Assembly (NCBI GenBank): GCA_001029755.1
Contig: CP011214.1
Span: forward strand, 200,595 to 264,594
DNA: 64,000 nt
Source of the DNA: Candidatus Woesebacteria bacterium GW2011_GWF1_31_35
Lineage (GTDB): Bacteria > Patescibacteriota > Microgenomatia > UBA8517
Direction: 5' to 3'
Part shown: positions 7,396-64,000 of the stretch, piece after piece
Position numbering within the stretch: position 1 is the stretch's first letter
Layout: every line of letters begins with the position of its first letter
The notes under the pieces: model-generated
What the model saw: only the letters and a program-made list of their open reading frames with translations
Told to the model about the DNA's origin: nothing
Database searches by the model: none
Translations under genes and position numbers: made by a program

Positions 7396-9821
7396 CGCCA
7401 ACTTGGAAACCAATAATAACTTCTATCTAACCATTCAGGAATTTTAAGTCCTATCCAATGTGGATAGAAATAAATAAAAAGAAGTAGTGTAATTGTAAAA
7501 ATAGGAATAATTGTTTTTGGAAAACGGCGCAAGATAAATCCTGTTGCTATTGTCAAAAATGGAATAGATGGTAGGTAATGATATAGAAACATAATTCTAG
7601 GAGATGCAATCCAGGGAACAAAAAAAATAAGGTAAGAAAATATAATAAATCCCAATTTCTTGTTTCTTTCTTTTGCTGAAATGAAAAATGAAAGTATTAT
7701 AGAAAATAATCCAAACCAAAAAACTGCAGGGTTTCCAAAAGCATAAATTCTTGAAACAAATTCCTTAGTTTCAGGGCCATTATAAAGATAAATAGGACGA
7801 ACAAGCATTGGCCAAGTATAAGCAGGCGAAGTATAAGGATGTTCTGCTCTTAAATTAGTGTGATACCACCACATTTGTTTTTGCACTTCAATGAAGTTTT
7901 CCCAACTATGACCCGTTTTAAACATTATTCCATAACTTGCAATATAAATTGCAATTGGAATAATAAGAAAAGATAGATAAGATATTTTTAATTTCTTTTT
8001 AAAAACAAAATGAGAAACAAAAAATATTGGTAATGTATAAATTGCAGACCACTTGGATGCAATTGCTAGACCAAACACAACTGACGAAAGAAAGTTTTTA
8101 TCTTTTAAGAAAAGGAGAATTGAAAGAAGTGAAAAAAACAAAAGGTATGAGTCATTCATTCCTATCCTACTCATTACTAAAACCAAACCATCAAGTGAAA
8201 AAATTGCTGAAGATAAAATTCCTACAAGCCTGTCCTTAAAAACTAAACTTGCAATCAAATAGACTAAAAGTACCGATCCAACACCCAAAATTGCTTGAAC
8301 AATTCTCCACCCAAATGCATTTTCTCCAAAGATAATCATTCCAAGGGTCATTCCTAGTTTTGCAACAGGTGGGTGAGTCCATTCATATGCAAATCCTTCA
8401 GGATGTGGATTCCACCACTCCCAAGCCTTAGGATCACCATGAAGCACTAACCCAGCAGTAAAAGCATGGTAGACTTCGTCAAAGTATTTTTCTTTTGGAA
8501 GATTTAAAGAATAAATTCTTGTAATAATTGAAAAAAATAAAATACCTAAAAGTAAAATCCTAGCTTTTTTACCTGAAATATCTTTTCCAAAATAATTAAT
8601 TTGTGATTTAACTTTATTTAATTTTAGCCTGAATAAGTCTTCGTATTTAAACGAAAATTTAATTTTTTTAAATTGAGAGATGATAAAAAATAATAACAAT
8701 GAGAGATTTGTAATGATAAAAAATTTGATAATTACTGGATTAAAAATTTCTTTAAAATTATCAGTTATCCAATAGTAAGAATAAGATAAATTAGCAAGAT
8801 AAGTAAAGGAAAATCCTGCATATACAACTAATACAACAGGGTTAGCTAATGAGGCTAAAAGAAGTGGTGCCAAGATTGGCAACAAATGTCTTTCATGCAT
8901 CCTAGTTAAAAACAGAAAAGAAACAAGAAGAGAAATTGCTGAAATTGTATACTCTAATCCCCCTTTCTTTCTTAATAAAAAAAGAACAATGACAATTAAT
9001 AAACAACTGATTCCTGCCCCAATCCAAAAAGATATATTATCAGGTTTCCAAAAATCAAAAAGTCCCCAAAAAGAAAATGCATTTACTGACCCATATGGAT
9101 ATTGGCTAGCTGAAACAGAAAGTCTTTTTAGAATAAACTCAAAAATGTTAGAAGTATTATTAAAAGGAATAAATCCAAATATAAAAACTACTAAACCAGA
9201 AATTATAAAGAATATAATTTCTTTTCCTTTCCATTTATTTTTTATAATTAAATATAAAATTCCAGGTAAGATAAATGCCGCCTGTGGTTTAATTAATGTT
9301 CCAATTGCAAGAATAATTGCAGAGAAAACCTTTTTATTTTTAGATGCCAGATAAACTGCCAAAAGTGAGAAAAATGCAGTTAATGAATCAACTTGTCCCC
9401 AAAGAGAAGAATTAGCAAAAACTGCAGGGTTAAAAAGATAAATTAAAGATAGAATTATTCCCCATTTTTTTACACTTAAATTATTGGCAATTTTATAAAT
9501 TAAATAACCAGTTCCCATATCAGCTAAGATTGCAGGTAATTTAAATAAAATAACCTGAAAAGCTGGAATTAGATTTAATTTTCCTAAAAGCCAAAGTATA
9601 TAAAGATACCCTGGTAGATAATCAGACCAACCAGAATAAAAATTATTAAGACCATTTTGTACTAATGAATTACTCCAAGCAACGAATGTTCCATGATCTA
9701 ATTGTAGTGTCCCAAAATTAGCTAAAAATAATCTTAACGCAAAGGCAGAAAAAATTATTAAGATAATGTTAAAATCAATGTAATGAAAATTAATAACAAA
9801 TTTTTTAAAAATATTTTTCAT
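7392..9821 (-). CDS. Tandem-fused GT-C glycosyltransferase (PMT/GT39-like, two modules)
   Basis: 809-aa polytopic protein. The C-terminal module carries the PMT-type motif KYFDEVYHAFTAG and loop NPHPEGFAYEWTHPP. The N-terminal half is a second polytopic GT-C-like module. Confidence 0.6.
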   Translation of the reverse strand: MKNIFKKFVINFHYIDFNIILIIFSAFALRLFLANFGTLQLDHGTFVAWSNSLVQNGLNNFYSGWSDYLPGYLYILWLLGKLNLIPAFQVILFKLPAILADMGTGYLIYKIANNLSVKKWGIILSLIYLFNPAVFANSSLWGQVDSLTAFFSLLAVYLASKNKKVFSAIILAIGTLIKPQAAFILPGILYLIIKNKWKGKEIIFFIISGLVVFIFGFIPFNNTSNIFEFILKRLSVSASQYPYGSVNAFSFWGLFDFWKPDNISFWIGAGISCLLIVIVLFLLRKKGGLEYTISAISLLVSFLFLTRMHERHLLPILAPLLLASLANPVVLVVYAGFSFTYLANLSYSYYWITDNFKEIFNPVIIKFFIITNLSLLLFFIISQFKKIKFSFKYEDLFRLKLNKVKSQINYFGKDISGKKARILLLGILFFSIITRIYSLNLPKEKYFDEVYHAFTAGLVLHGDPKAWEWWNPHPEGFAYEWTHPPVAKLGMTLGMIIFGENAFGWRIVQAILGVGSVLLVYLIASLVFKDRLVGILSSAIFSLDGLVLVMSRIGMNDSYLLFFSLLSILLFLKDKNFLSSVVFGLAIASKWSAIYTLPIFFVSHFVFKKKLKISYLSFLIIPIAIYIASYGIMFKTGHSWENFIEVQKQMWWYHTNLRAEHPYTSPAYTWPMLVRPIYLYNGPETKEFVSRIYAFGNPAVFWFGLFSIILSFFISAKERNKKLGFIIFSYLIFFVPWIASPRIMFLYHYLPSIPFLTIATGFILRRFPKTIIPIFTITLLLFIYFYPHWIGLKIPEWLDRSYYWFPSWR

Positions 9822-11003
9822 AGTTTCTTTTCAAAAAACAATTTTATATTAATTCCATTATTAATATTTTTTGGAATTTTATTAATATACAAAAATATAT
9901 ATCCTAATCCAAGAAATTGGTATGATCATTATTTATATCTATCAAAATCTCTAATACATGGCTGTGTCGATATACCAGATCTACCTGTATTTTATCACGA
10001 TAAATTAGAATTTAATGGTAAAACTTATATCCCTTTTCCACCAGGAGCATCTTTGGTTTTAATCCCGTTTATTTTACTTAAAGAGAGTATCACGCAACAA
10101 CAAGTATCAATATTGATAGGAAGCTTAGACATCTTATTAATATACTTATTACTTTTAAATTTTACCAATAAAAAGAATGCAATTATTCTCTCTATTTTTT
10201 TAGGATTGGGGACCTCATTTTTTTGGTCAGCTGTAGTTGGAACTACATGGTTTTTTGCCCACGTTGTCTCAATATTCTTTATAACAATTTCATTGATTTT
10301 ACATTTCAATAAAAAACATTTTCTCTCAGGAATTTTCTTTGCTCTCGCTGCACTAACCCGTATTCCAATGGTTCTGGCTGGTATATTTTACTTGTTACAA
10401 TTACTTAAACGAAAGAAAGATTTCATTTACTTCTTAATAGGGGCTTTTATTTTTATTCCAATTTTATTTTTCTATAACTGGGCAAGATTTGGTAATTTTT
10501 TAAAAACAGGATATAACGAGGTTTATCTGCAATATGCAAATTCTAATTACCCTTATACAATAAGGCAAATAATAAACCCCAAATCAACTCTTTATGGATA
10601 CTTTGATATCAAAAATATTCCTATGCATCTATACACATTTTTTATTATGCCACCCGATATCAATATATCTGGGAGAATTGTTAAAGAAATAAAACCTTCA
10701 CCTTTTGGAATGGGAATTTTATTTACTTCTCCACTTCTATTTATTGCATTAAAACCAAAATTTAAAAAAGGTTTGGAACTAAATTCAATAATAACAGCCC
10801 TAATTGTGGCTGTCCCAAGTTTTTTACATATTATGCAAGGCTGGGTTCAATTTGGATACAGATTTGTTTTGGATTTTATAGTTTTTTTGATGATTATATT
10901 GGCACTTCGTTTTAAACCAACAAAATTAAATCTACTATTAATATTAATCTCAATTATAGTAAACTTTTGGGGAGTTATATGGGCAATAAATTTAGGTTGG
11001 TAA
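9783..11003 (+). CDS. GT-C family membrane glycosyltransferase (ArnT/PMT_2-like)
   Basis: 406-aa polytopic protein. Shares a C-terminal motif (QFGYRF..DF..FLM...N.WGV) with the next gene. Confidence 0.45.
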   Translation: MKINNKFFKNIFHSFFSKNNFILIPLLIFFGILLIYKNIYPNPRNWYDHYLYLSKSLIHGCVDIPDLPVFYHDKLEFNGKTYIPFPPGASLVLIPFILLKESITQQQVSILIGSLDILLIYLLLLNFTNKKNAIILSIFLGLGTSFFWSAVVGTTWFFAHVVSIFFITISLILHFNKKHFLSGIFFALAALTRIPMVLAGIFYLLQLLKRKKDFIYFLIGAFIFIPILFFYNWARFGNFLKTGYNEVYLQYANSNYPYTIRQIINPKSTLYGYFDIKNIPMHLYTFFIMPPDINISGRIVKEIKPSPFGMGILFTSPLLFIALKPKFKKGLELNSIITALIVAVPSFLHIMQGWVQFGYRFVLDFIVFLMIILALRFKPTKLNLLLILISIIVNFWGVIWAINLGW

Positions 11004-54918: not shown

Positions 54919-54927
54919 TGTGGATAA
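54919..54927 (-). promoter_or_regulatory. Perfect DnaA box (TTATCCACA on the minus strand) upstream of dnaA
   Basis: tgtggataa at 54919-54927, in the rpmH-dnaA intergenic region. Confidence 0.6.
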
Positions 54928-54994: not shown

Positions 54995-56368
54995 ATGGAA
55001 ACTGTTGATAAAGACAAGGTTTGGAAAGACACACTCGAGGTTCTCCGAGTATCTGTTTCTGATGCCACTTTTGGGACATGGTTAACCCACACACATCTTT
55101 CTGATGTAAAAGAAACTGGGGGTAGGGTAGTTTGTGAAATTGGATGTAACTCTATTTTTGTTAAATCCCAAGTAGAACAAAGGTATTTTGGTCTAATTCA
55201 AGATACCTTAACAAAACAATTTGAAAAACCCACTGATTTAACTTTTATAGTCAAGCCAAGACATGAAGAAAAACAAGTAACCACAAATACACCATCTCCT
55301 CTTTTTGATCAACCTAAAATAAATCAAGAGGAAATAAATTTAGCCACAAGAAGATCAAACGTAAGACCTAGTTTTACTTTTGAAAAATTTGCAGTTTCAG
55401 GTTCTAACCAACTAGCACACGCAGCTGCCGAAGCTATTGCTCAAAGTCCAGGAAATGCTTATAACCCATTATTTATTTGGGGTGGGGTAGGGGTGGGGAA
55501 AAGCCATTTAATGCATGCTGTTGGAAACTCAATGATTTCAAAAGATACAAGTTCAAAGATTATTGCCTGTACTGCAGAAGATTTTACTAATGATATTGTT
55601 GATGGAATTAGAAACAAAACAACAGCAGAAGTAAGAAAAAAATATAGGAAATTAGATGCTTTGTTTATTGATGATATTCAATTTATTGCTGGTAAAGATA
55701 CGGCTCAGGAAGAATTTTTCCACACCTTTAATGCTGTAACCTCAGCTGGGGGACAAGTAATATTAACTTCCGATAGGCCTCCTTCTGAAATTAGCAAGCT
55801 TGAAGAAAGACTTAAAAGTCGTTTTGAGGCTGGCTTAATTGTAGATATTGCACCACCTGATTTTGAGTTAAGGTGTGCAATTGTGCAAATTAAGGCAGAG
55901 GAAAGGGGAATTAAAATTGATTCAGAGATAGTACAGCTTATTGCCGGAAACATTGATTCGGCAAGAGCAATACAAGGATTTATTGTAAATTTATTTACGC
56001 AGGTTAATTTCAAGAAATTAGAATTAACATATGATGCAGTTCAGTCTATTCTAGGTAAAGGTAATGAGAAAAATGAAAGAGTAATTAAATCAAATCCTGA
56101 GGATGTTATTAATATTGTTTCAAAATACTATTCTGTTGGCAAAAAACAACTTTTAGGGGAATCAAGGGCAAGACCAATTGCAAGGCCTAGACAAATGTTA
56201 ATGTATTTACTTAAAACTCAATTAGGGATTCCTTACCAAGAAGTGGGTAGACTTATTGGAGGAAGGGATCATACAACAGTGATGCACGCTGTTAATAAAA
56301 TACAAGAATTGGCTTCAAGTAGTGTGGATATTCAAGAGGATATAAGGGGGATTAAAAAGTCACTTTGA
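54995..56368 (+). CDS. dnaA: Chromosomal replication initiator DnaA
   Basis: Walker A GGVGVGKSHLMHAVGN, AAA+ core, and the C-terminal DNA-binding signature GGRDHTTVMHAVNKI. Confidence 0.95.
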   Translation: METVDKDKVWKDTLEVLRVSVSDATFGTWLTHTHLSDVKETGGRVVCEIGCNSIFVKSQVEQRYFGLIQDTLTKQFEKPTDLTFIVKPRHEEKQVTTNTPSPLFDQPKINQEEINLATRRSNVRPSFTFEKFAVSGSNQLAHAAAEAIAQSPGNAYNPLFIWGGVGVGKSHLMHAVGNSMISKDTSSKIIACTAEDFTNDIVDGIRNKTTAEVRKKYRKLDALFIDDIQFIAGKDTAQEEFFHTFNAVTSAGGQVILTSDRPPSEISKLEERLKSRFEAGLIVDIAPPDFELRCAIVQIKAEERGIKIDSEIVQLIAGNIDSARAIQGFIVNLFTQVNFKKLELTYDAVQSILGKGNEKNERVIKSNPEDVINIVSKYYSVGKKQLLGESRARPIARPRQMLMYLLKTQLGIPYQEVGRLIGGRDHTTVMHAVNKIQELASSSVDIQEDIRGIKKSL

Positions 56369-56436
56369 GGATAAGATTTGAAAGTTCTCCACTTATCCAC
56401 AAATTAGATTAATTTATACACAAATCTATCCACAAC
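56367..56436. promoter_or_regulatory. oriC DnaA-box cluster between dnaA and dnaN
   Basis: ttatcctca (reverse, 1 mismatch) at 56367-56375; TTATCCACA (perfect) at 56393-56401; TTATACACA (1 mismatch) at 56413-56421; CTATCCACA (1 mismatch) at 56427-56435. An AT-rich stretch follows (attaatcttaattgattaatt). Confidence 0.65.
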
Positions 56437-56558: not shown

Positions 56559-57668
56559 ATGAAATTAACTGTTTTACAAGAAAATTTAAAAAATGCAGTA
56601 ACTATAACTTCTCATTTTATTTCTCCTAAAGCACAACTTCCAATATTGGGAAATATCTTAATTAAAACTGATAAATCTAAACTTATATTATCTTCTACTA
56701 ATTTGGAAACATCTGTTTCAACTTCAATTGGAGCTAAAGTTGAAAAGGAAGGAGAAATTACAGTTCCTGGAAGAATATTCAGTGATGTTATTTCAAATCT
56801 TTCTTCTGGAACGATTGAAATAGAAGTAGAGAAAGAACAAATAAAAATTACTTCAGGAACATTTAAATCAAACATCTTAGGTGTTAATTCTTCCGATTTT
56901 CCAATAATTCCTAATTCAATTGGAAAAAATTCATTAACTCTACCCAAAAATAAATTTTTAGAAGGATTAAATAAAACTCTTTTTGCTGTTTCAACTGACG
57001 AAACAAGACCTGTTTTAACTGGAATCCTTTTTGTATTTAAAGGCAAAAATTTACATTTAGTATCAACAGATGGTTTTAGACTTTCTCAAAAGACAATCAA
57101 ACTAGAAAAGGAATTTGAAGATCAAAAAATTATTGTGCCTAAAACAATACTTCTTGAAATTTCAAAACTAGGAAGTAGTGATGATATTTCATTTTCGTTT
57201 AGTAAAAAAGATAATCAAATTGTTTTTGTAAGTGGGGAAACAGTATTCTCTTCAAGAGTAATAGAAGGGGAATATCCAGATTTTGAAAAGATATTACCAA
57301 AGTCATCAGTTTTAAATGTCTTAATTGATAAAGAAGATTTTGAAAAAGCAGTTAAACTAGCATCAGTCTTTTCTAGAGACGCCGGAAACATATTAAAATT
57401 GTCAATTGATAAAAATACTTTAAAAGTGATTGCAGAAAGTTCAACTTCAGGAAACCAAGAAACTAATTTGGAGGTTAAGGTTGAAAAGAAATCTGAATTT
57501 GATGGGGGAGTAGAAATATCCTTTAATTATAGATTTATTGAAGAAGTATTAAGAGTAATATCATCTGATGATATATTAATTGAATTTGGAGGGCCCAATA
57601 CTCCAGGAAAGTTTATTGATAATAAAGATACAGATTTTCTTCATTTAATAATGCCTATTAAGACTTGA
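56559..57668 (+). CDS. dnaN: DNA polymerase III beta sliding clamp
   Basis: 369 aa with three-domain beta-clamp organisation; MKLTVLQENLKNAVTITSHFIS N-terminus. Confidence 0.9.
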   Translation: MKLTVLQENLKNAVTITSHFISPKAQLPILGNILIKTDKSKLILSSTNLETSVSTSIGAKVEKEGEITVPGRIFSDVISNLSSGTIEIEVEKEQIKITSGTFKSNILGVNSSDFPIIPNSIGKNSLTLPKNKFLEGLNKTLFAVSTDETRPVLTGILFVFKGKNLHLVSTDGFRLSQKTIKLEKEFEDQKIIVPKTILLEISKLGSSDDISFSFSKKDNQIVFVSGETVFSSRVIEGEYPDFEKILPKSSVLNVLIDKEDFEKAVKLASVFSRDAGNILKLSIDKNTLKVIAESSTSGNQETNLEVKVEKKSEFDGGVEISFNYRFIEEVLRVISSDDILIEFGGPNTPGKFIDNKDTDFLHLIMPIKT

Positions 57669-57691: not shown

Positions 57692-58762
57692 CTATTTTTT
57701 AGAATATGCCGATAAATAAAGTGAGGCTGTTATTTCTTTATCAAATCCTTTAACAGAAGCCATTCCTTCTAGAAGAAATACTGGTTGTATTATTTCAGAA
57801 GTTAAGCTTTCTTGTAAATACACTAAAGATACCTTGCCTATTGTGATATTTTTTATATCTTCAGACTTTAAGTCTGGAAGATTAACATTTGAGTCATTTA
57901 AACTAACTAGCACGGAATCATTAATTGTTTCTATTACTTCTTTATAATCCTTTATCTTATATTCAATTTCTCCTAGCTTATATTCTGAATACAAGGAGGC
58001 TTCTAAGTTTAAAATCTCTCCGTCTTTGGTAAATTGAACATATATCTGTGAATTTTGAGGATTGGTTGTAAATATAGGCAATGTTCCAGAAGATGAATAT
58101 AAATTAACTTGTGTTATTTCTGCATCTTCTTTAGTAGTTTTTCTAAAATTTTCTAATCCGTCCTCTGTTTTTAAATAGGCAAAATTAGAGAACTTAAGTG
58201 AATCTTTGTTTATATTTAATTTTTCAGACAAAAGATTTATTGCAATATTTTTATAATCTTCATCTGACAATTGTTTATTAATAGCGTTGTCAATCATAGA
58301 TTTAGGATTAACAGCTGGGGTAACTTCAATTTTTCTTATTTTTGAATAAATAATTAAACTATATTTGTCACCGTTCCATATATAAATTTTTCCATTTTTA
58401 ATATCATTGAATTCTAAAGGACTAATTGTAAATCCAAAATTTTTAGAAATTTTATCCATCTCTACTTGTGTAAAAGAATTTAAAGAAGATTGCTTAAGAT
58501 AAGAAATATTTTTTGGAAAATTGTCAAAATTCTCCTTTTTTAAAGAATGGGTTATTTTTAAATTATTTCCAAAATAGTTCTCAATCTTAGGAGGAGTAAT
58601 AAACTGTTGTTTTGAGGTATCTACTTTATTTTTACTTGAAAAAATAACATAAACAGAACTGGCGATAGAAATAATTATTAACAATATAATTAATTTAGAT
58701 TTAAGATTTAATTTTCTCATCTTTATAATTCTACGGTATAGACCCACAACCAATACCATCAT
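57692..58762 (-). CDS. Secreted/anchored hypothetical protein downstream of the M23 membrane protein
   Basis: N-terminal signal anchor (likely true start MRKLNLKSKLIILLIII at 58720). No recognisable family; co-directional with the T4SS-like genes. Confidence 0.4.
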   Translation of the reverse strand: MMVLVVGLYRRIIKMRKLNLKSKLIILLIIISIASSVYVIFSSKNKVDTSKQQFITPPKIENYFGNNLKITHSLKKENFDNFPKNISYLKQSSLNSFTQVEMDKISKNFGFTISPLEFNDIKNGKIYIWNGDKYSLIIYSKIRKIEVTPAVNPKSMIDNAINKQLSDEDYKNIAINLLSEKLNINKDSLKFSNFAYLKTEDGLENFRKTTKEDAEITQVNLYSSSGTLPIFTTNPQNSQIYVQFTKDGEILNLEASLYSEYKLGEIEYKIKDYKEVIETINDSVLVSLNDSNVNLPDLKSEDIKNITIGKVSLVYLQESLTSEIIQPVFLLEGMASVKGFDKEITASLYLSAYSKK

Positions 58763-61526
58763 TAGAACAACCCCTTATTATTGATTTAGGAATAAAAGGT
58801 GGAATCATTTGCAAACCACCCTTAAATTCATAATGTAAATGGGGACCAGTCGAATTTCCCGTATCCCCGCTTGCTCCAATCATTTGTCCTAATAATACTT
58901 CTTTTCCGTTTGGTATAGAAAAACCAAGTAGATGAGCATATGTTGTTGTAATTATTTTACCACCACAACTTGAAGTAATAACCACGTGGTTTCCGTAACC
59001 CCCAGAATCCTCATAAGTAGTAGCTATCCCTGAATGAGTAGCTTTTACTTTTGTTCCTGTTGGTAAAATAACATCAATTGCCTCTACTTCTCTATGACTA
59101 TAACTACCGTCAGGAGTCTGGGTAATTTTTCCACTATCAACCGGCCAAATACTAGGGCAATCGTCAGGTGGGTTTCCAATCTTGACTCCGGCTGATGCAC
59201 TTGATTTAATTCCACTTTGACCCGCAGTATCTGCTGTAACTGTAATAATGTCTACAATTAAAGAATCTTCAAAAGTTCCTTTTGAATATTCTTGTTTATA
59301 TGAAAAAGAAAAAGTTTCTCCTGGCTGTATGTCTTCAAGTGTTGTGGGTATATTAGGACTCGTTGGAGGACAATTTATTTTTGGTCCAGTTTTAACAACT
59401 CCACATTCATAGGTTAAACGAATGTTTTTTAAAACATCCTTTTTAGCTTTAATTGTAATTTTATACTCAACAGTTAGTGGTAATTCAGAATTTTCAAAAG
59501 GTCCCGGTGGAACCGGAGTTTTGGTCACTTCAATGTAAGGGTTAATAATGTTTGCAAATGTTAAAGCGCTTGGTGGAACCATATACGCTCCAGAATTAAT
59601 AATGAACATAAAAAAAGCAACTGTTGGAGGGATAACCAAAAGAGTAACTATTATTGGTGTAGCTATTGTAACAGCAATACTTCCAAAGATAGCTCCTAAT
59701 TTTCCAAAAAAAATACTTACCCTAGCAACACTCTTTAATGCCCCTATTGCATATAATCCTCCACCTGCAATCATAGTTAAACCAATCGGACCGCCTATTA
59801 AAAGTCCTCCTCCGACTATGGCTGTTGGTAATAAATTTTCTTTAACCTTTTTCCAATTAATTTTTTCGACTATTTTTCCCAAGATCCACCCAACTGCTAT
59901 TGATATTCCAAGTGTTACCCAACCAGCAAGTGTAGATAAAGACGCAAAAATTGTTGGCAATAAACCACCCGCAACTTTTGTTGTAGTTTGAACAACAGCT
60001 TGACCAGCTAGTTGTGCACCTGTTTGTGTAGCTACTTCAGTCGTTATTGTACCAATAACAGGTGCCGCCCCAGTAGAAACAGTACTTATAATCGGGGCTG
60101 TTTCAATTACAACTGATGCTGTGGGGGCAAGACCGAAATTAATCCCAGTTAATTTGCTTATTCCGCTTAAAATTGGAGCTGAATCCGGAGCAAATTTTAA
60201 AGCCATTCCTCCAAACCAATTTGTTGATTCCCATGTAACAGGAGAACCAACCCCAAAAGTTGAATAAAAAAGGCTTTTTGCTTCTATTGATTGGAATATT
60301 TTTCCTGCTGCTGATTCTGGTGCAAAACTTGCAATTTTTCCTTCTAAATAAGTTCCAGCCTTGTTTAAAAGAAAACCCTTTGTTTTATCTGTTCCAAAAT
60401 CCTTTATAGTTTCCAGAGTTGAATTTTGATCTTCTAATGTTTTTTGGTGGTTTTGATTAATTTCGCTTAAATTAACAGTGTTTATAAATCCTTCTTTCGG
60501 GCTTTCAGAAAAAGTAACTTCTATTTGACTCGGATCCGCCCCGAAGATGGTTGAGGCAAACTGTTTTCCAAAAGCTATTGTTGTAATTTCTTTGGCAATT
60601 TGATCAGGAACAATTCTATTTACAGCAGTTGAATTTACAGTGTTTTTTAAAATATTAAGAGTTTCTTTATTTGTAATAACTTTAGGGATTATATTTTTGT
60701 CGTTTACAATTCCAGTTAATATTGCAGACTGTGTTATTGGGGAAATATAACTCGGATTATCTAGTTGAACAATGTTTTCAATAATTTTTGTTGCTGTTTG
60801 TTTTGAAATTAGTTTTATTTCTTCGTTTGTTACTCCTTGTCCTTTAAAAACAGGTGAAACTCTCTCTTCTATTACTTTTGATAAATCTTCTAATGTTTCT
60901 TTAGGTTTTGTTTTTGCTTCATTTTTGTAAATATCGAATGCTTTTTGTTCTTCTTCTGTAAATTTGGGTAAGTCTTTAATCTTTACTTTTGCATAGATTT
61001 TTTTATCTTGATTGCTTGAATCTTTAAGGTCTGAAGCAATTTTTTGTGATTCCTCTATTTTTCTTTTTAACAAATCCTGCTGATCTTTTATTTCTTGTTT
61101 TCTTTTTATCGTTTCTCTAACCTCTTTATTTGATTTTTCAATTATTTCTTTCCTTTTCGTCTCACGTGCAACTTGTTCTTCTTGAAGTTGTTTTGATTCA
61201 TCTTTATTTAAGGTTGTTTTTGTTTGCTCTTCAGGTCTTGGAGCTTCCTTTGGCGCTATTTTTCTACTCTCAATCTCTTCATAAATTTTTGCATATGCGG
61301 GTCTTATATTTTTTGTATCTGTTAAAGTTTCAACAAAATTTAATAGATCTTTTTTACTTGTTGTGTTTTTGTAAATAATTCCAATTTCAGGAATTGACCA
61401 TGTGGTTTGGCCTTCACCATAAAACTCTTCAAGACTTAGTTCTTTGGGAAACGATTTCTCACAAGCCTCAAGAATCTTTTGAAGTGTTTTTGTTTCAATT
61501 TTATTAATATCATTTACTGTTGCCAT
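58731..61526 (-). CDS. Polytopic membrane protein with cytoplasmic coiled-coil N-terminus and C-terminal extracytoplasmic M23 peptidase domain
   Basis: 931 aa: charged coiled-coil N-terminal roughly 180 aa, soluble middle, Gly-rich TM bundle (WVTLGISIAVGWILG...IVGGGLLIGGPIGLTMIAGGGLYAIG...), then an M23 catalytic core (GYGNHVVI...GASGDTGNSTGPHLHYEF). Confidence 0.7.
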   Translation of the reverse strand: MATVNDINKIETKTLQKILEACEKSFPKELSLEEFYGEGQTTWSIPEIGIIYKNTTSKKDLLNFVETLTDTKNIRPAYAKIYEEIESRKIAPKEAPRPEEQTKTTLNKDESKQLQEEQVARETKRKEIIEKSNKEVRETIKRKQEIKDQQDLLKRKIEESQKIASDLKDSSNQDKKIYAKVKIKDLPKFTEEEQKAFDIYKNEAKTKPKETLEDLSKVIEERVSPVFKGQGVTNEEIKLISKQTATKIIENIVQLDNPSYISPITQSAILTGIVNDKNIIPKVITNKETLNILKNTVNSTAVNRIVPDQIAKEITTIAFGKQFASTIFGADPSQIEVTFSESPKEGFINTVNLSEINQNHQKTLEDQNSTLETIKDFGTDKTKGFLLNKAGTYLEGKIASFAPESAAGKIFQSIEAKSLFYSTFGVGSPVTWESTNWFGGMALKFAPDSAPILSGISKLTGINFGLAPTASVVIETAPIISTVSTGAAPVIGTITTEVATQTGAQLAGQAVVQTTTKVAGGLLPTIFASLSTLAGWVTLGISIAVGWILGKIVEKINWKKVKENLLPTAIVGGGLLIGGPIGLTMIAGGGLYAIGALKSVARVSIFFGKLGAIFGSIAVTIATPIIVTLLVIPPTVAFFMFIINSGAYMVPPSALTFANIINPYIEVTKTPVPPGPFENSELPLTVEYKITIKAKKDVLKNIRLTYECGVVKTGPKINCPPTSPNIPTTLEDIQPGETFSFSYKQEYSKGTFEDSLIVDIITVTADTAGQSGIKSSASAGVKIGNPPDDCPSIWPVDSGKITQTPDGSYSHREVEAIDVILPTGTKVKATHSGIATTYEDSGGYGNHVVITSSCGGKIITTTYAHLLGFSIPNGKEVLLGQMIGASGDTGNSTGPHLHYEFKGGLQMIPPFIPKSIIRGCSNDGIGCGSIP

Positions 61527-61533
61527 TTTTTAG

Positions 61534-63447
61534 TTATTCTTGTTTATTCCAGGGTTTAACATTTGGAACTGTGGGTACTAAAGTTTCAAGAGGCTTTGTT
61601 GTAATTAATTTATGTTCATCGGCAGATGCAACAACTCTAATTGGTGCATGGTGTTGTCCTGCAAAAAAGATTCCTTCACCAATGTTTGCAGCCAAAAGAA
61701 GTTGTTTTTCTCCTTCGGAAAGATAAAAAGTTTCCCCAATTTTATCTATTGCCGCAGGTGACTGCTTTAATAGAAGCCTTAATGCAGAGTTTGTAACAAT
61801 TGCTTTCCCAATGTCTTGACTTAGGAAGTCTTCGATGTCCTGAGTGATTGTAGTAAGTCCCAGATAGTATTTTCTAGCTCTCTTGACAACACTCCAAAGA
61901 AATTGTGCAGTGTCAGGATATTTCATCATTTGCCATGCTTCTTCAACAACTAGTATTCTTCTTTTTATATCCTTTTTAACCCTGGTCCAGATGTAGTCTA
62001 AAATCATAAACATAGCAATTGGTCTTAAGGCATCTTGCATATCTTTTACAGAAAAAACAGTAAATGGATTATTAAGGTTTATATTTGTTTGTTTGTCAAA
62101 AATCCCAACAAAACTTCCTCTTACAAACTTTTCAATTCTAGCAGCAAGGTCCAATGCTTCTGGGGACTCCATCCCTATTAATGTTTTATAAAGATCTTCA
62201 ATCAAAGGAGGTTCCTTGGTTTGGGTTATTGGATCAGTTGTAATACCTTTTGCTTTATAAGTCATAATTATTGCTCTATCAAGTAAAGCTTCTTGAATAG
62301 GGGAAATTTTACCCATGATAATTGCAAAGAGTGAGTGGAGCGACAAAACCTTAAGTCCTAATTGGTTTTCTCCCTCTTCTTGAATTTGTGCTAAATCAAA
62401 AGGATTAATTTTTGAAGGAGAATTATATGAAAAAGAAATATACTGTCCTCCAACAGCATCACAAAGTTGTTTATATTCAGCTTCTGGGTCTAAAATTATT
62501 ACCTCTGTCCCAATCATTAAAGACCTGACCGCCTCCGTTTTAACGAAATATGATTTTCCACCTCCAGATGTAGCCAGCACTGTGAAGTTGGCATTCTCTA
62601 AAGAAAATCTATCAAAAATAATGAAAGATTCATTTTGTGAATTTATTCCATACAAAACTCCTTTGTCTGAGGAAAGTTCCGCTGAAGTAAACGGAAAAGT
62701 GGTAGCAACTGAGGTGGTATCCATATTTCTAGTAATAGAAAGACTATCTCTACCATATGGAATTGTTGAAAGAAATCCTAACCTTTGGTCAAGCATTGCG
62801 TGTTTTGCAATAATTAATAAAGATCCTAAAGTGGATTCAATTTGTTTTGTAATGTTATTTAATTCATCTAATGTGTTTGCCGATATTGTTATATAGAAAG
62901 AAAACTCATAATATCTTTCAATTCCTTTTACCAGTTGTTCTTGTAAAGACCTTGCATCTTCAAGTTTTGCTGTGGTTGATGGGTCAACAATTTTCCCCCT
63001 TTCAATGTCTGTTGAAAGTTCAGCTTCCATTTCTGCAATTTTACGTCGAAGATCATCAAGAACAGATTTTCCGGCAACAGGATAAACGTAAAAACTAATA
63101 TCAAGTGAGCTATTAAAGTTAATTATTGGTTCAAGCCAACCGGGAGCTACAAATCTTGGATATCCTGCAACGAATAGTGTTTTATAGTAAACGTTATTTA
63201 CTTTAATAAAATCAAAATCAACTTCAACATGCTCTGACGCTATTGCATCACAAAGGCTTAGTTCTTTGTTTTCAATAGCAAGGTTTGGATCAGTTACCTT
63301 CGGTTTAATAATTGTGTTTGGTTCTGAAATGTTAGTACCAGTAATAGATTGAATAGGTTGCTGTTCTGGTGTTTTAACATCAGGAACAGGTGAGACAGGC
63401 ATATTAATGTTTTTGTCTAGTTTTGTATTGTTTGTTGTGTTATCCAT
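61534..63447 (-). CDS. VirB4/TrbE/TraC-family type IV secretion ATPase (C-terminal, ATPase-containing part)
   Basis: Walker A VLATSGGGKSYFVK, Walker B RRILVVEEAWQMM, LGLTTITQDIEDF, plus the upstream N-domain block DFDFIKVNNVYYKTLFVAGYPRFVAPGWLEPIINFNSSLDISFYVYP typical of Gram-positive-type VirB4. Confidence 0.8.
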   Translation of the reverse strand: MDNTTNNTKLDKNINMPVSPVPDVKTPEQQPIQSITGTNISEPNTIIKPKVTDPNLAIENKELSLCDAIASEHVEVDFDFIKVNNVYYKTLFVAGYPRFVAPGWLEPIINFNSSLDISFYVYPVAGKSVLDDLRRKIAEMEAELSTDIERGKIVDPSTTAKLEDARSLQEQLVKGIERYYEFSFYITISANTLDELNNITKQIESTLGSLLIIAKHAMLDQRLGFLSTIPYGRDSLSITRNMDTTSVATTFPFTSAELSSDKGVLYGINSQNESFIIFDRFSLENANFTVLATSGGGKSYFVKTEAVRSLMIGTEVIILDPEAEYKQLCDAVGGQYISFSYNSPSKINPFDLAQIQEEGENQLGLKVLSLHSLFAIIMGKISPIQEALLDRAIIMTYKAKGITTDPITQTKEPPLIEDLYKTLIGMESPEALDLAARIEKFVRGSFVGIFDKQTNINLNNPFTVFSVKDMQDALRPIAMFMILDYIWTRVKKDIKRRILVVEEAWQMMKYPDTAQFLWSVVKRARKYYLGLTTITQDIEDFLSQDIGKAIVTNSALRLLLKQSPAAIDKIGETFYLSEGEKQLLLAANIGEGIFFAGQHHAPIRVVASADEHKLITTKPLETLVPTVPNVKPWNKQE

Positions 63448-63456
63448 ATTTTTTTA

Positions 63457-64000
63457 TTAAATATCTTTTTTAACAGCTGGTGGTTCAGGATTATTAATTT
63501 GCCAGTAAAGATCTATTAGTTCATGTGTTGTTAGTTGCTTAAGTTTTAAACCAAGCCTTCCTGCTTGTCTTACTAAATGATCCCTTTTAGGAAAAAGCGT
63601 AACCTTAGCTTTTTTTAACACATAACCTTTAGGAAAAGGAAGTGGACCACTTTTAAGAATAGTTTGGGCTGATTTAGTAACACCTAATTCTAATTGATTA
63701 AATGGAATTACAATAAAAAATCTTTTACCAAGAACAGTTTTTTTCTTAATAGATTCTGTAATGAAATCTCTGTAGCTTTGAGTAATTGCAATAAGTTTAG
63801 GGTTAGTAATTTTACTAGCAGCTTCATCAAAAAAATTAATATATCCTGAAATATCTTTCCTTTGTGTTCTAATCATTATTTGTATTGAAAAAGACAAAGA
63901 ATTTATTAAAGCTGCAAAAGCAGCTACAACCGCACCCTGTTCTTTTTCTGACAAAAGTCCAAAGTTTAAAGATGATGTTTCTAAAACAATTGCAGCCCCA
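63457..64000 (-). CDS. VirB4 N-terminal-domain-like protein (partial; ORF stays open to the right window edge)
   Basis: The reading frame is open from the window edge to the stop (…LNFGLLSEKEQGAVVAAFAALINSLSFSIQIMIRTQRKDISGY…KRFFIVIPFNQLE…LIDLYWQINNP). This resembles the extreme N-terminal region of conjugative VirB4 proteins. It ends with TAA TAA, then AAAAAT, then the ATG of the ATPase ORF, all in one frame. Confidence 0.5.
   Translation of the reverse strand, partial: GAAIVLETSSLNFGLLSEKEQGAVVAAFAALINSLSFSIQIMIRTQRKDISGYINFFDEAASKITNPKLIAITQSYRDFITESIKKKTVLGKRFFIVIPFNQLELGVTKSAQTILKSGPLPFPKGYVLKKAKVTLFPKRDHLVRQAGRLGLKLKQLTTHELIDLYWQINNPEPPAVKKDI

Follow-up and report, generated by a model that had tools for sequence, protein, structure and literature searches.

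The window analysed here, a stretch of 64,000 nt from Candidatus Woesebacteria bacterium GW2011_GWF1_31_35 (contig CP011214.1, positions 200,595 to 264,594), ends in a cluster of genes related to type IV secretion systems (T4SS), which lies within a few kb of the probable replication origin. Four minus-strand open reading frames (ORFs) in the ORF list follow one another head to tail (63457 to beyond 64000, 61534–63447, 58731–61526, and 57692–58762) and converge on dnaN. A preliminary description of this DNA had proposed a T4SS-like module beside the origin, which is borne out by the gene content and by a cluster of DnaA boxes. The features, in window coordinates, are:

63457..64000, minus strand: TrsD-like (or 'TraC-like') gene, 3′ part; 181 codons including the stop, the rest outside the window
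63448..63459, minus strand: junction TAA TAA AAA AAT, from the TrsD-like stop to the VirB4 ATG
61534..63447, minus strand: VirB4-type ATPase of 637 aa without the N-terminal domain; matches to NF045971, Pfam, and PDB 4ag5
58731..61526, minus strand: 931-aa membrane protein with a C-terminal M23 peptidase domain; Pfam Peptidase_M23
57692..58720, minus strand: 342-aa protein (356 aa from the first ATG, at 58762); no family match
56559..57668, plus strand: dnaN; DNA_pol3_beta Pfam domains; convergent with the T4SS operon
56366..56434: probable oriC, with five DnaA-box-like 9-mers, one of them perfect (TTATCCACA), spanning the 3′ end of dnaA and running into the spacer before dnaN
54995..56368, plus strand: dnaA

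Two further assemblies cover the same region. L001 is contig MGIH01000003.1 of Candidatus Woesebacteria bacterium RIFOXYC1_FULL_31_51, of which the window is the reverse complement; the two are identical over 12,467 nt, and L001 reaches 9,276 nt past position 64000. L002 is an independent second assembly (GCA_001793425.1) with the same genes. The loci used for comparison are eight related Microgenomatia loci (L003–L010) and three more (L016–L018).

The 637-aa protein scores 372.5 bits against the NCBIfam family NF045971 ('VirB4-like conjugal transfer ATPase, CD1110 family', cutoff 325), which makes it a member of this family. The match covers profile positions 180–735 of 752, with positions 1–179 absent. 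The protein also matches Pfam P-loop_TraG (E 9e-32), AAA_10, and DUF87, as well as the VirB4 C-terminal domain of PDB 4ag5 (E 7.5e-47). Specifically, the Walker A motif ATSGGGKS occupies VirB4 residues 292–299 (window 62551–62574), while the Walker B motif LVVEEAW occupies residues 499–505 (window 61933–61953). Both motifs had been recognised in the preliminary description, which also placed VirB4 directly next to dnaN; that adjacency does not hold, as two genes intervene. More than 7,600 VirB4 homologues were retrieved, and the best 120 are 75–100% identical and about 575–695 aa long, bar one 1,113-aa intein carrier.

The first ATG gives the 637-aa protein, in which conservation is low from residue 1 to about residue 57–73. 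The first 57 residues are of low complexity and poorly conserved, so the true start of VirB4 is uncertain. The public record calls a protein of 580 aa from an ATT start (Ile58 of the ORF; window 63274–63276, L001 10001). Some relatives carry an intein in VirB4 (L010 10695–14228, L005 about 8675–10329, protein P0027). It is about 540 aa long, in frame, contains a LAGLIDADG-type endonuclease, and sits exactly within the Walker A loop (...ATSGAGK / SINYD...FIHN / SYFVKTEAV); the window VirB4 has no intein.

The N-terminal domain is not part of the 637-aa polypeptide, and profile positions 1–179 are supplied by the upstream gene, which is complete in L001 (9110–9820), where it encodes 236 aa and extends to the equivalent of window position 64167. 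A tblastn search of plasmids with this TrsD-like protein leads to Firmicutes conjugation loci, and in Carboxydocella pCCELLA01 and Brevibacillus pBbsI the query matches the N-terminus of a one-piece VirB4/TraC. The two window proteins align to these one-piece proteins as follows:

Carboxydocella, 754 aa: TrsD-like residues 37–226 to 11–176 (E 2e-14); VirB4 residues 74–619 to 193–744 (E 9e-88)
Brevibacillus TraC, 810 aa: TrsD-like residues 34–154 to 19–138 (E 2e-13); VirB4 residues 80–615 to 216–780 (E 4e-44)

Likewise, in VirB4_plasma, the VirB4 profile of Mycoplasma integrative conjugative elements (ICEs), the TrsD-like protein matches positions 104–232 of 894 (E 1.9e-6) and the 637-aa protein matches positions 272–893. 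Because both pieces tile one-piece Firmicutes VirB4 proteins, the alignments show that the upstream ORF supplies, as a soluble polypeptide of its own, the N-terminal domain that the 637-aa VirB4 lacks, in agreement with the preliminary description. Its placement fits this assignment, as the protein is small, stand-alone, directly upstream of an N-domain-less VirB4, and homologous to that domain. Comparison with pGO1 TrsD by hhalign gives a probability of 56% (E 1e-4). The best 120 of 1,339 TrsD-like homologues are all stand-alone proteins of 206–349 aa; PF26593 ('TraC-like') is present in these 120 and has a 'weak' listing for the TrsD-like protein itself. A local Pfam scan of the 180-aa fragment and of the full 236-aa protein gave no match, and a profile of the TrsD-like homologues found no VirB4 among PDB sequences.

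At the junction of the two genes the minus strand reads ...AAA AAA GAT ATT TAA TAA AAA AAT ATG GAT AAC, which confirms the same-frame ORFs and the TAATAA quoted in the preliminary description. The upstream stop (63459–63457) and the VirB4 ATG (63447–63445) are separated by a 9-nt spacer and share a frame, with no evident Shine-Dalgarno sequence. In all 11 related loci (L003–L010 and L016–L018) the TrsD-like and VirB4 genes are likewise separate, with an ATGA overlap in different frames at five loci (five of eight relatives) and otherwise with spacers of 4, 9, 29, or 37 nt; some relatives have Shine-Dalgarno sequences within the upstream gene, alongside the ATGA overlap. A frame common to both genes occurs in only two of 11 distinct genomes, those of the window and L009. 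The varied frames and spacings indicate that the shared frame and TAATAA of the window, to which meaning had been attached, are coincidental. Furthermore, residue 50 of pGO1 TrsE aligns to residue 81 of the window VirB4, indicating the same split point. Judging from these comparisons, the split is old and fixed, and it is the norm in Patescibacteria, neither unusual nor recent nor an artefact. The earlier view of a split VirB4 as an unusual variant thus has to be given up; the same division exists in pGO1 TrsD/TrsE and on a Pontibacillus megaplasmid.

The order PrgI-like, TrsD-like, VirB4, large membrane protein, small single-pass protein, dnaN, dnaA is found in L003–L010 and L016–L018. Across L003–L010, identity to the window protein is:

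VirB4: 68–86%
TrsD-like protein: 54–86%
PrgI-like protein: 43–63%
DnaA: 50–76%
DnaN: 38–61%
931-aa protein: 25–34%

By these ranges, no protein of the neighbourhood is better conserved than VirB4, and the 931-aa hydrolase protein evolves fastest.

The 931-aa protein, encoded directly after VirB4, carries a Pfam Peptidase_M23 domain (PF01551) at residues 815–903 (window 58818–59084), identified by both score (68.8 bits, cutoff 28.7) and fold. The N-terminal segment of about 520 aa is helical, contains a coiled coil and a long K/E-rich helix (H108–162), and is presumably cytoplasmic; no signal peptide is evident by eye in the N-terminus. Hydrophobic segments follow in a Gly-rich transmembrane region (residues ~523–647), and a Cys-containing beta-sandwich occupies residues ~665–783. 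The protein contains a conserved LFIINSGAYxVPP stretch (FIINSGAYxVPP at window 59571–59612), in which I643 never varies in the large family alignment (A5), nor does P651 in A6, and conservation at the remaining positions is 90% or higher; the family has several conserved Cys as well. In the M23 domain, H896-L-H898 (HxH) and H865 (the catalytic His) are intact. The first metal-binding motif is S-H-x3-E-A-x-D (H811-x6-D818; window 59073–59099), not HxxxD, and this variant is kept in the family consensus.

A word-based search with the non-M23 part of the 931-aa protein retrieved only 16 proteins, and an exhaustive HMMER search of metagenome and genome proteins revealed the family, with 560 representative clusters at E≤1e-3 and 230 at 1e-30. 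Nearly all clusters are 750–1,000 aa long and align in the same register. Among 55 sampled members, Pfam identifies M23 in 33, CHAP in one, and NlpC/P60 in one. An Amidase_2 head is present in L009 (12529–14331), and a weak CHAP match in L010 (14231–16831). The transmembrane module is retained among orthologues, in most cases together with the beta-sandwich, while the C-terminal wall-hydrolase domain differs. According to these domain assignments, the wall-hydrolase head is usually M23 and is occasionally exchanged.

The 931-aa protein stands where the wall hydrolases of Gram-positive T4SS stand, in line with the preliminary description, which had likened its architecture to theirs, and is a candidate for the cell-wall hydrolase of the system, a functional analogue of VirB1 and PrgK. 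An M23/LytM domain in such a position is less unusual than had been thought: precedents are PrgK of pCF10 (PDB 8s0u, matched by the protein) and, on plasmids of Brevibacillus, Carboxydocella, and Pontibacillus, the M23 genes that come straight after virB4. These have only the M23 domain in common with the 931-aa protein. A tblastn search of PLSDB plasmids with the cytoplasmic, transmembrane, and beta-sandwich module of about 800 aa gave no match beyond M23, and BLASTP and hhalign against the 1,050-aa M23 protein of Pontibacillus aligned the M23 domain only. The proposal of an M23-fused channel component finds no support, as a Pfam scan found no homology to VirB6, and BLASTP and hhalign found none to pGO1 TrsF.

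The last gene of the cluster most likely starts at Met15 (window 58720), in agreement with the public record, and then encodes 342 aa; the 356-aa start would mean a 32-nt overlap with the 931-aa gene. The protein has a single N-terminal hydrophobic segment and is better described as signal-anchored or exported than as secreted, the term first used for a 356-aa product. Sequence searches returned no family, NCBIfam, PHROGs, or PDB match. A VirB8-like protein (NTF2 fold: PrgL/TraM/TcpC) would be bitopic with an NTF2-like extracellular domain, and sequence searches of families and of PDB recognised no such domain here. Proteins at this position in relatives are not alignable with it. In L006 (14730–15899) and L007 (4679–5857) the position is held by a PEGA-domain protein that resembles SEML1_0005 of Southlakia epibionticum; in the window protein no domain can be recognised, and it aligns to neither of them. 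By position, it may correspond to the exported accessory proteins of Southlakia. Taken over the four ORFs, Pfam hidden Markov model (HMM) searches recovered VirB4 and M23, and nothing for the TrsD-like fragment, the 342/356-aa ORF, or VirB6.

The cluster continues past position 64000, as had been anticipated, with a PrgI-like gene, a polytopic protein, and at least three VirB2-like pilins in L001:

L001 8129–9103: PrgI/VirB3-like protein, 324 aa; PF12666 at residues 5–84, 30.1 bits (cutoff 27)
L001 5505–8015, opposite strand: 836-aa protein; no match
L001 3843–5501: 552-aa polytopic membrane protein; no family match
L001 1349–3823: 824-aa secreted protein; no family
L001, upstream of 1349: VirB2-like pilins, three complete and one truncated (tblastn)

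The PrgI-like protein has a hydrophobic segment at residues 43–71, and both its PF12666 score and an N-terminal hydrophobic hairpin support the assignment. Two pilins exceed the PF18895 (T4SS_pilin) cutoff of 26.6 bits, with scores of 39.1 and 33.8, and the third, at 21.7, lies below it. The 552-aa protein is a VirB6 candidate by position and topology only; it has no VirB6/TrbL HMM match, and BLASTP against the 779-aa Pontibacillus protein gives E 0.31. The flank that the preliminary description had singled out for inspection therefore contains pilins and a VirB6 candidate, and no VirD4 or VirB8 family match. Opposite-strand proteins of 836–1,031 aa between the VirB6-candidate and PrgI-like genes are also found in L016 (2332–5427) and L018 (3259–6105). 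They have no predicted transmembrane segment and no family match, and their position is kept in distant relatives. PADLOC and PHROGs searches returned nothing relevant.

Throughout the block from the PrgI-like gene to the 342-aa gene the spacers are 6–10 nt, consistent with a single operon, and promoter and terminator scans gave chance-level results only. The last gene stops 23 nt short of the dnaN stop. The DnaA-box cluster at 56366–56434 probably marks oriC; some 1.3 kb separate it from the point where the T4SS operon ends. A second perfect DnaA box lies upstream of dnaA, at 54919–54927, and over the whole window 32 boxes stand against 21 ± 5 expected by chance, a marginal excess.

The nearest published counterparts of this cluster are those of other Patescibacteria. 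In a survey of 3,035 Patescibacteria genomes, VirB4 forms a monophyletic clade nested in MPF-FATA (Quinonero-Coronel et al. 2025, PMC12102498), and we take the MPF-FATA placement from this published phylogeny. The same study reports 1,664 TrsD homologues adjoining virB4, homologues of PrgI/VirB3, arrays of VirB2-like pilins (notably in Microgenomatia), peptidoglycan hydrolases with M23 domains among them, peptidases downstream of virB4, and an enrichment of dnaA, dnaN, rpmH, and rnpA near virB4 in Microgenomatia and Paceibacteria; relaxases occur in only 103 of the 3,035 genomes, and linked coupling proteins are nearly absent (PMC12102498). In Southlakia epibionticum, transposon sequencing (Tn-seq) found the equivalent locus, which converges on dnaN, to be essential (Wang et al. 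2023, PMC10633639). Specifically, SEML1_0005–0011 and SEML1_0013, next to dnaN, are essential (PMC10633639 and its supplementary tables). Among them, SEML1_0008 is a 612-aa VirB4, SEML1_0009 the abutting 293-aa upstream gene, and SEML1_0010 PrgI; SEML1_0007, directly after virB4, has 1,113 aa and ends in a DD-peptidase fold, SEML1_0006 is a lysozyme/CHAP protein, and there are exported PEGA-type proteins, including the essential SEML1_0005 (PMC10633639).

The window cluster shares with the Patescibacteria clade (PMC12102498) and with Southlakia SEML1_0006–0019 a short VirB4 after TrsD-like and PrgI/VirB3 genes, a very large protein that is encoded immediately after virB4 and ends in a LAS-type peptidase, accessory proteins that are exported, an array of VirB2-like pilins, an operon converging on dnaN/dnaA, and the lack of a linked relaxase or coupling protein. 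It differs from Southlakia in three respects: SEML1_0007 is M15B/DD-peptidase-like and is followed by a separate lysozyme/CHAP protein, whereas the head here is M23; the 836-aa opposite-strand gene lies here between the VirB6 candidate and the PrgI-like gene; and an NTF2/VirB8-like protein is not recognised here.

Outside Patescibacteria, the pGO1/pSK41/pIP501-type operon (TrsB–TrsG) has a two-piece VirB4 divided at the same point (pGO1 TrsD, 227 aa, and TrsE, 672 aa) and, in pGO1, the same order of VirB3-like protein, TrsD, VirB4, membrane protein, and wall hydrolase. In contrast to the window cluster, pGO1 is plasmid-borne and has a relaxase, VirD4 (TrsK), and TrbL/VirB6 (TrsL); a gene of its own encodes the hydrolase TrsG (CHAP domain), and no homology was found between TrsF and the 931-aa protein. 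In Carboxydocella pCCELLA01 (754 aa), Brevibacillus pBbsI (810 aa), and R388 TrwK, the domain content equals the sum of both window proteins, but it is carried by a single polypeptide and not by two genes. The megaplasmid of Pontibacillus sp. ALD_SL1 has the same layout as the window cluster (NZ_CP062975.1 351801–361354, L014). Its genes encode a pilin-like protein, a 779-aa membrane protein, a small protein, a 274-aa TrsD-like protein, a 621-aa CD1110-family VirB4, and a 1,050-aa M23 protein. This locus lies beside flagellar genes and has no coupling protein (T4CP) or relaxase annotated in 27 kb, and PLSDB types the plasmid as non-mobilizable. The locus may represent a relative from outside Patescibacteria that does not serve conjugation.

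On the grounds of gene content, domain identities, tiling, synteny, and conservation, the region is very probably the downstream half of a chromosomal, vertically inherited Patescibacteria T4SS with a two-gene VirB4, most likely serving host interaction rather than conjugation. That a formerly full-length VirB4 was broken by a recent nonsense mutation, has become a pseudogene, or was split by an assembly error, which would account for the shared frame and for the mere TAA TAA AAA AAT between the ORFs, is scarcely credible, because the independent assembly L002 has an identical junction, the relatives show different frames, ATGA overlaps, or 4–37-nt spacers, the best 120 VirB4 homologues are short (bar the intein carrier) and the best 120 TrsD-like homologues stand-alone, and VirB4 opens with its own poorly conserved leader of 57–73 residues, with no TrsD-like continuation. 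The split is thus genuine, as the preliminary description had argued. We also regard it as very unlikely that the cluster is a conjugative element integrated in the chromosome, or what remains of a plasmid, and serves conjugal DNA transfer: the limited search described below detected no relaxase, coupling protein, or integrase in the window and L001, and hence not the combination of T4SS, T4CP, and relaxase that defines a conjugative system. It is true that the nearest relatives outside Patescibacteria are conjugation ATPases of Firmicutes plasmids and ICEs, and that the genes follow one another as in the pGO1 trs and pCF10 prg operons. However, all related genomes examined have the cluster beside dnaN/dnaA, VirB4 is conserved above DnaA, the GC content of the cluster (0.32) is like that of the surrounding chromosome (0.30 elsewhere), and relaxases are, as noted above, rare in the phylum survey (PMC12102498).

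A further alternative is that the same machine takes up host nucleic acid or other macromolecules, in the manner of Helicobacter ComB or archaeal Ced, instead of exporting a substrate or serving pilus adhesion. The NCBIfam matches of VirB4 to the Ced ATPases CedB (E 1.6e-10) and CedD (E 5e-7) point that way but are weak, with scores far below the cutoffs; the lack of a linked coupling protein is compatible with import, and a 2026 preprint ties a monophyletic VirB4 to host RNA uptake and describes tubular structures at the host interface. In Southlakia, by contrast, competence depends on ComEC, the loss of which leaves viability unaffected, whereas the T4SS is essential (review summarising Wang 2023). 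Transport direction is not readable from sequence, and we consider an importer improbable, though less so than conjugation.

Several points weigh against the interpretation as a host-interaction T4SS. No cluster gene has a VirB6, VirB8, or VirD4 family match. The search of the window and L001 for a coupling protein and a relaxase, which found neither, was limited to one tblastn query each (pGO1 TrsK and MobA) and to Pfam on the ten largest other window ORFs, which are housekeeping genes (MurJ, UvrD, AddA-like, GroEL, tRNA synthetase, and others). The TrsD-like protein scores far under the cutoff of the NCBIfam TrsD/TraD family NF041427 (24.3 bits against 200, E 2.3e-5), and among PDB structures its AlphaFold model (pLDDT 67.6) comes closest to TrwK/VirB4 of R388, a weak match (E 0.049, probability 0.93). 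For the 931-aa protein, the model, with pLDDT <50 over residues 422–661, does not fix the number of transmembrane helices, and the topology given above is a prediction; H-x6-D in place of HxxxD makes the catalytic activity of its M23 domain less than certain. Finally, all support for the reading in this organism comes from sequence.

For the T4SS of the window, these results suggest the following mechanism. One operon would encode five proteins, namely the PrgI/VirB3-like protein, the TrsD-like protein, VirB4, the 931-aa membrane-anchored M23 hydrolase, and the 342-aa signal-anchored protein, with the polytopic VirB6 candidate, the large secreted protein, and the VirB2-like pilin array encoded upstream of it. 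The TrsD-like and VirB4 genes are presumably co-translated from one mRNA. The 637-aa protein would contribute the middle domain and the P-loop ATPase domain of VirB4, and together with the TrsD-like protein it would rebuild a full VirB4 protomer. In R388 structures, the VirB4 N-terminal domain touches VirB3, and in one-piece VirB4 proteins it also meets the membrane; the TrsD-like protein may similarly tie the VirB4 protomer to the PrgI/VirB3-like membrane protein. The 931-aa protein probably cuts peptidoglycan locally, letting the channel or pilus assemble. The analogy with Southlakia epibionticum makes a VirB2-type pilus or channel the most likely product of the machine, one that serves the epibiotic interaction with a host bacterium and not conjugation.

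We also raise, as a speculation that is doubtful at present, that the 931-aa protein may be specific to Patescibacteria, with a conserved cytoplasmic and transmembrane module that would dock on VirB4 and a fast-evolving, occasionally swapped extracellular head that would target the wall of the host bacterium and not that of its own cell, which would make the head a host-range determinant of a feeding or attachment pilus. Its low identity among relatives (25–34%, against 68–86% for VirB4) and the different heads (M23, CHAP, NlpC/P60, and Amidase_2) are compatible with this idea.

The cluster, the two-gene VirB4, the pilins, the peptidase, and the proximity to dnaA/dnaN are already known from work of 2023–2025 (PMC12102498, PMC10633639), and the window is one further Woesebacteria example of this published architecture. 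Our analysis makes two modest additions. The tiling on one-piece Firmicutes VirB4 proteins indicates that the TrsD-like protein and the short VirB4 are one VirB4, split as in pGO1 TrsD/TrsE, and a family of membrane hydrolases of about 900 aa with apparently interchangeable wall-hydrolase heads is described. A 2025 review presents these systems as the first T4SS essential for the survival of their bearer. They are the only T4SS shown to be essential for the growth of the bearer, they occur in most Patescibacteria, and they probably underlie the epibiotic lifestyle.

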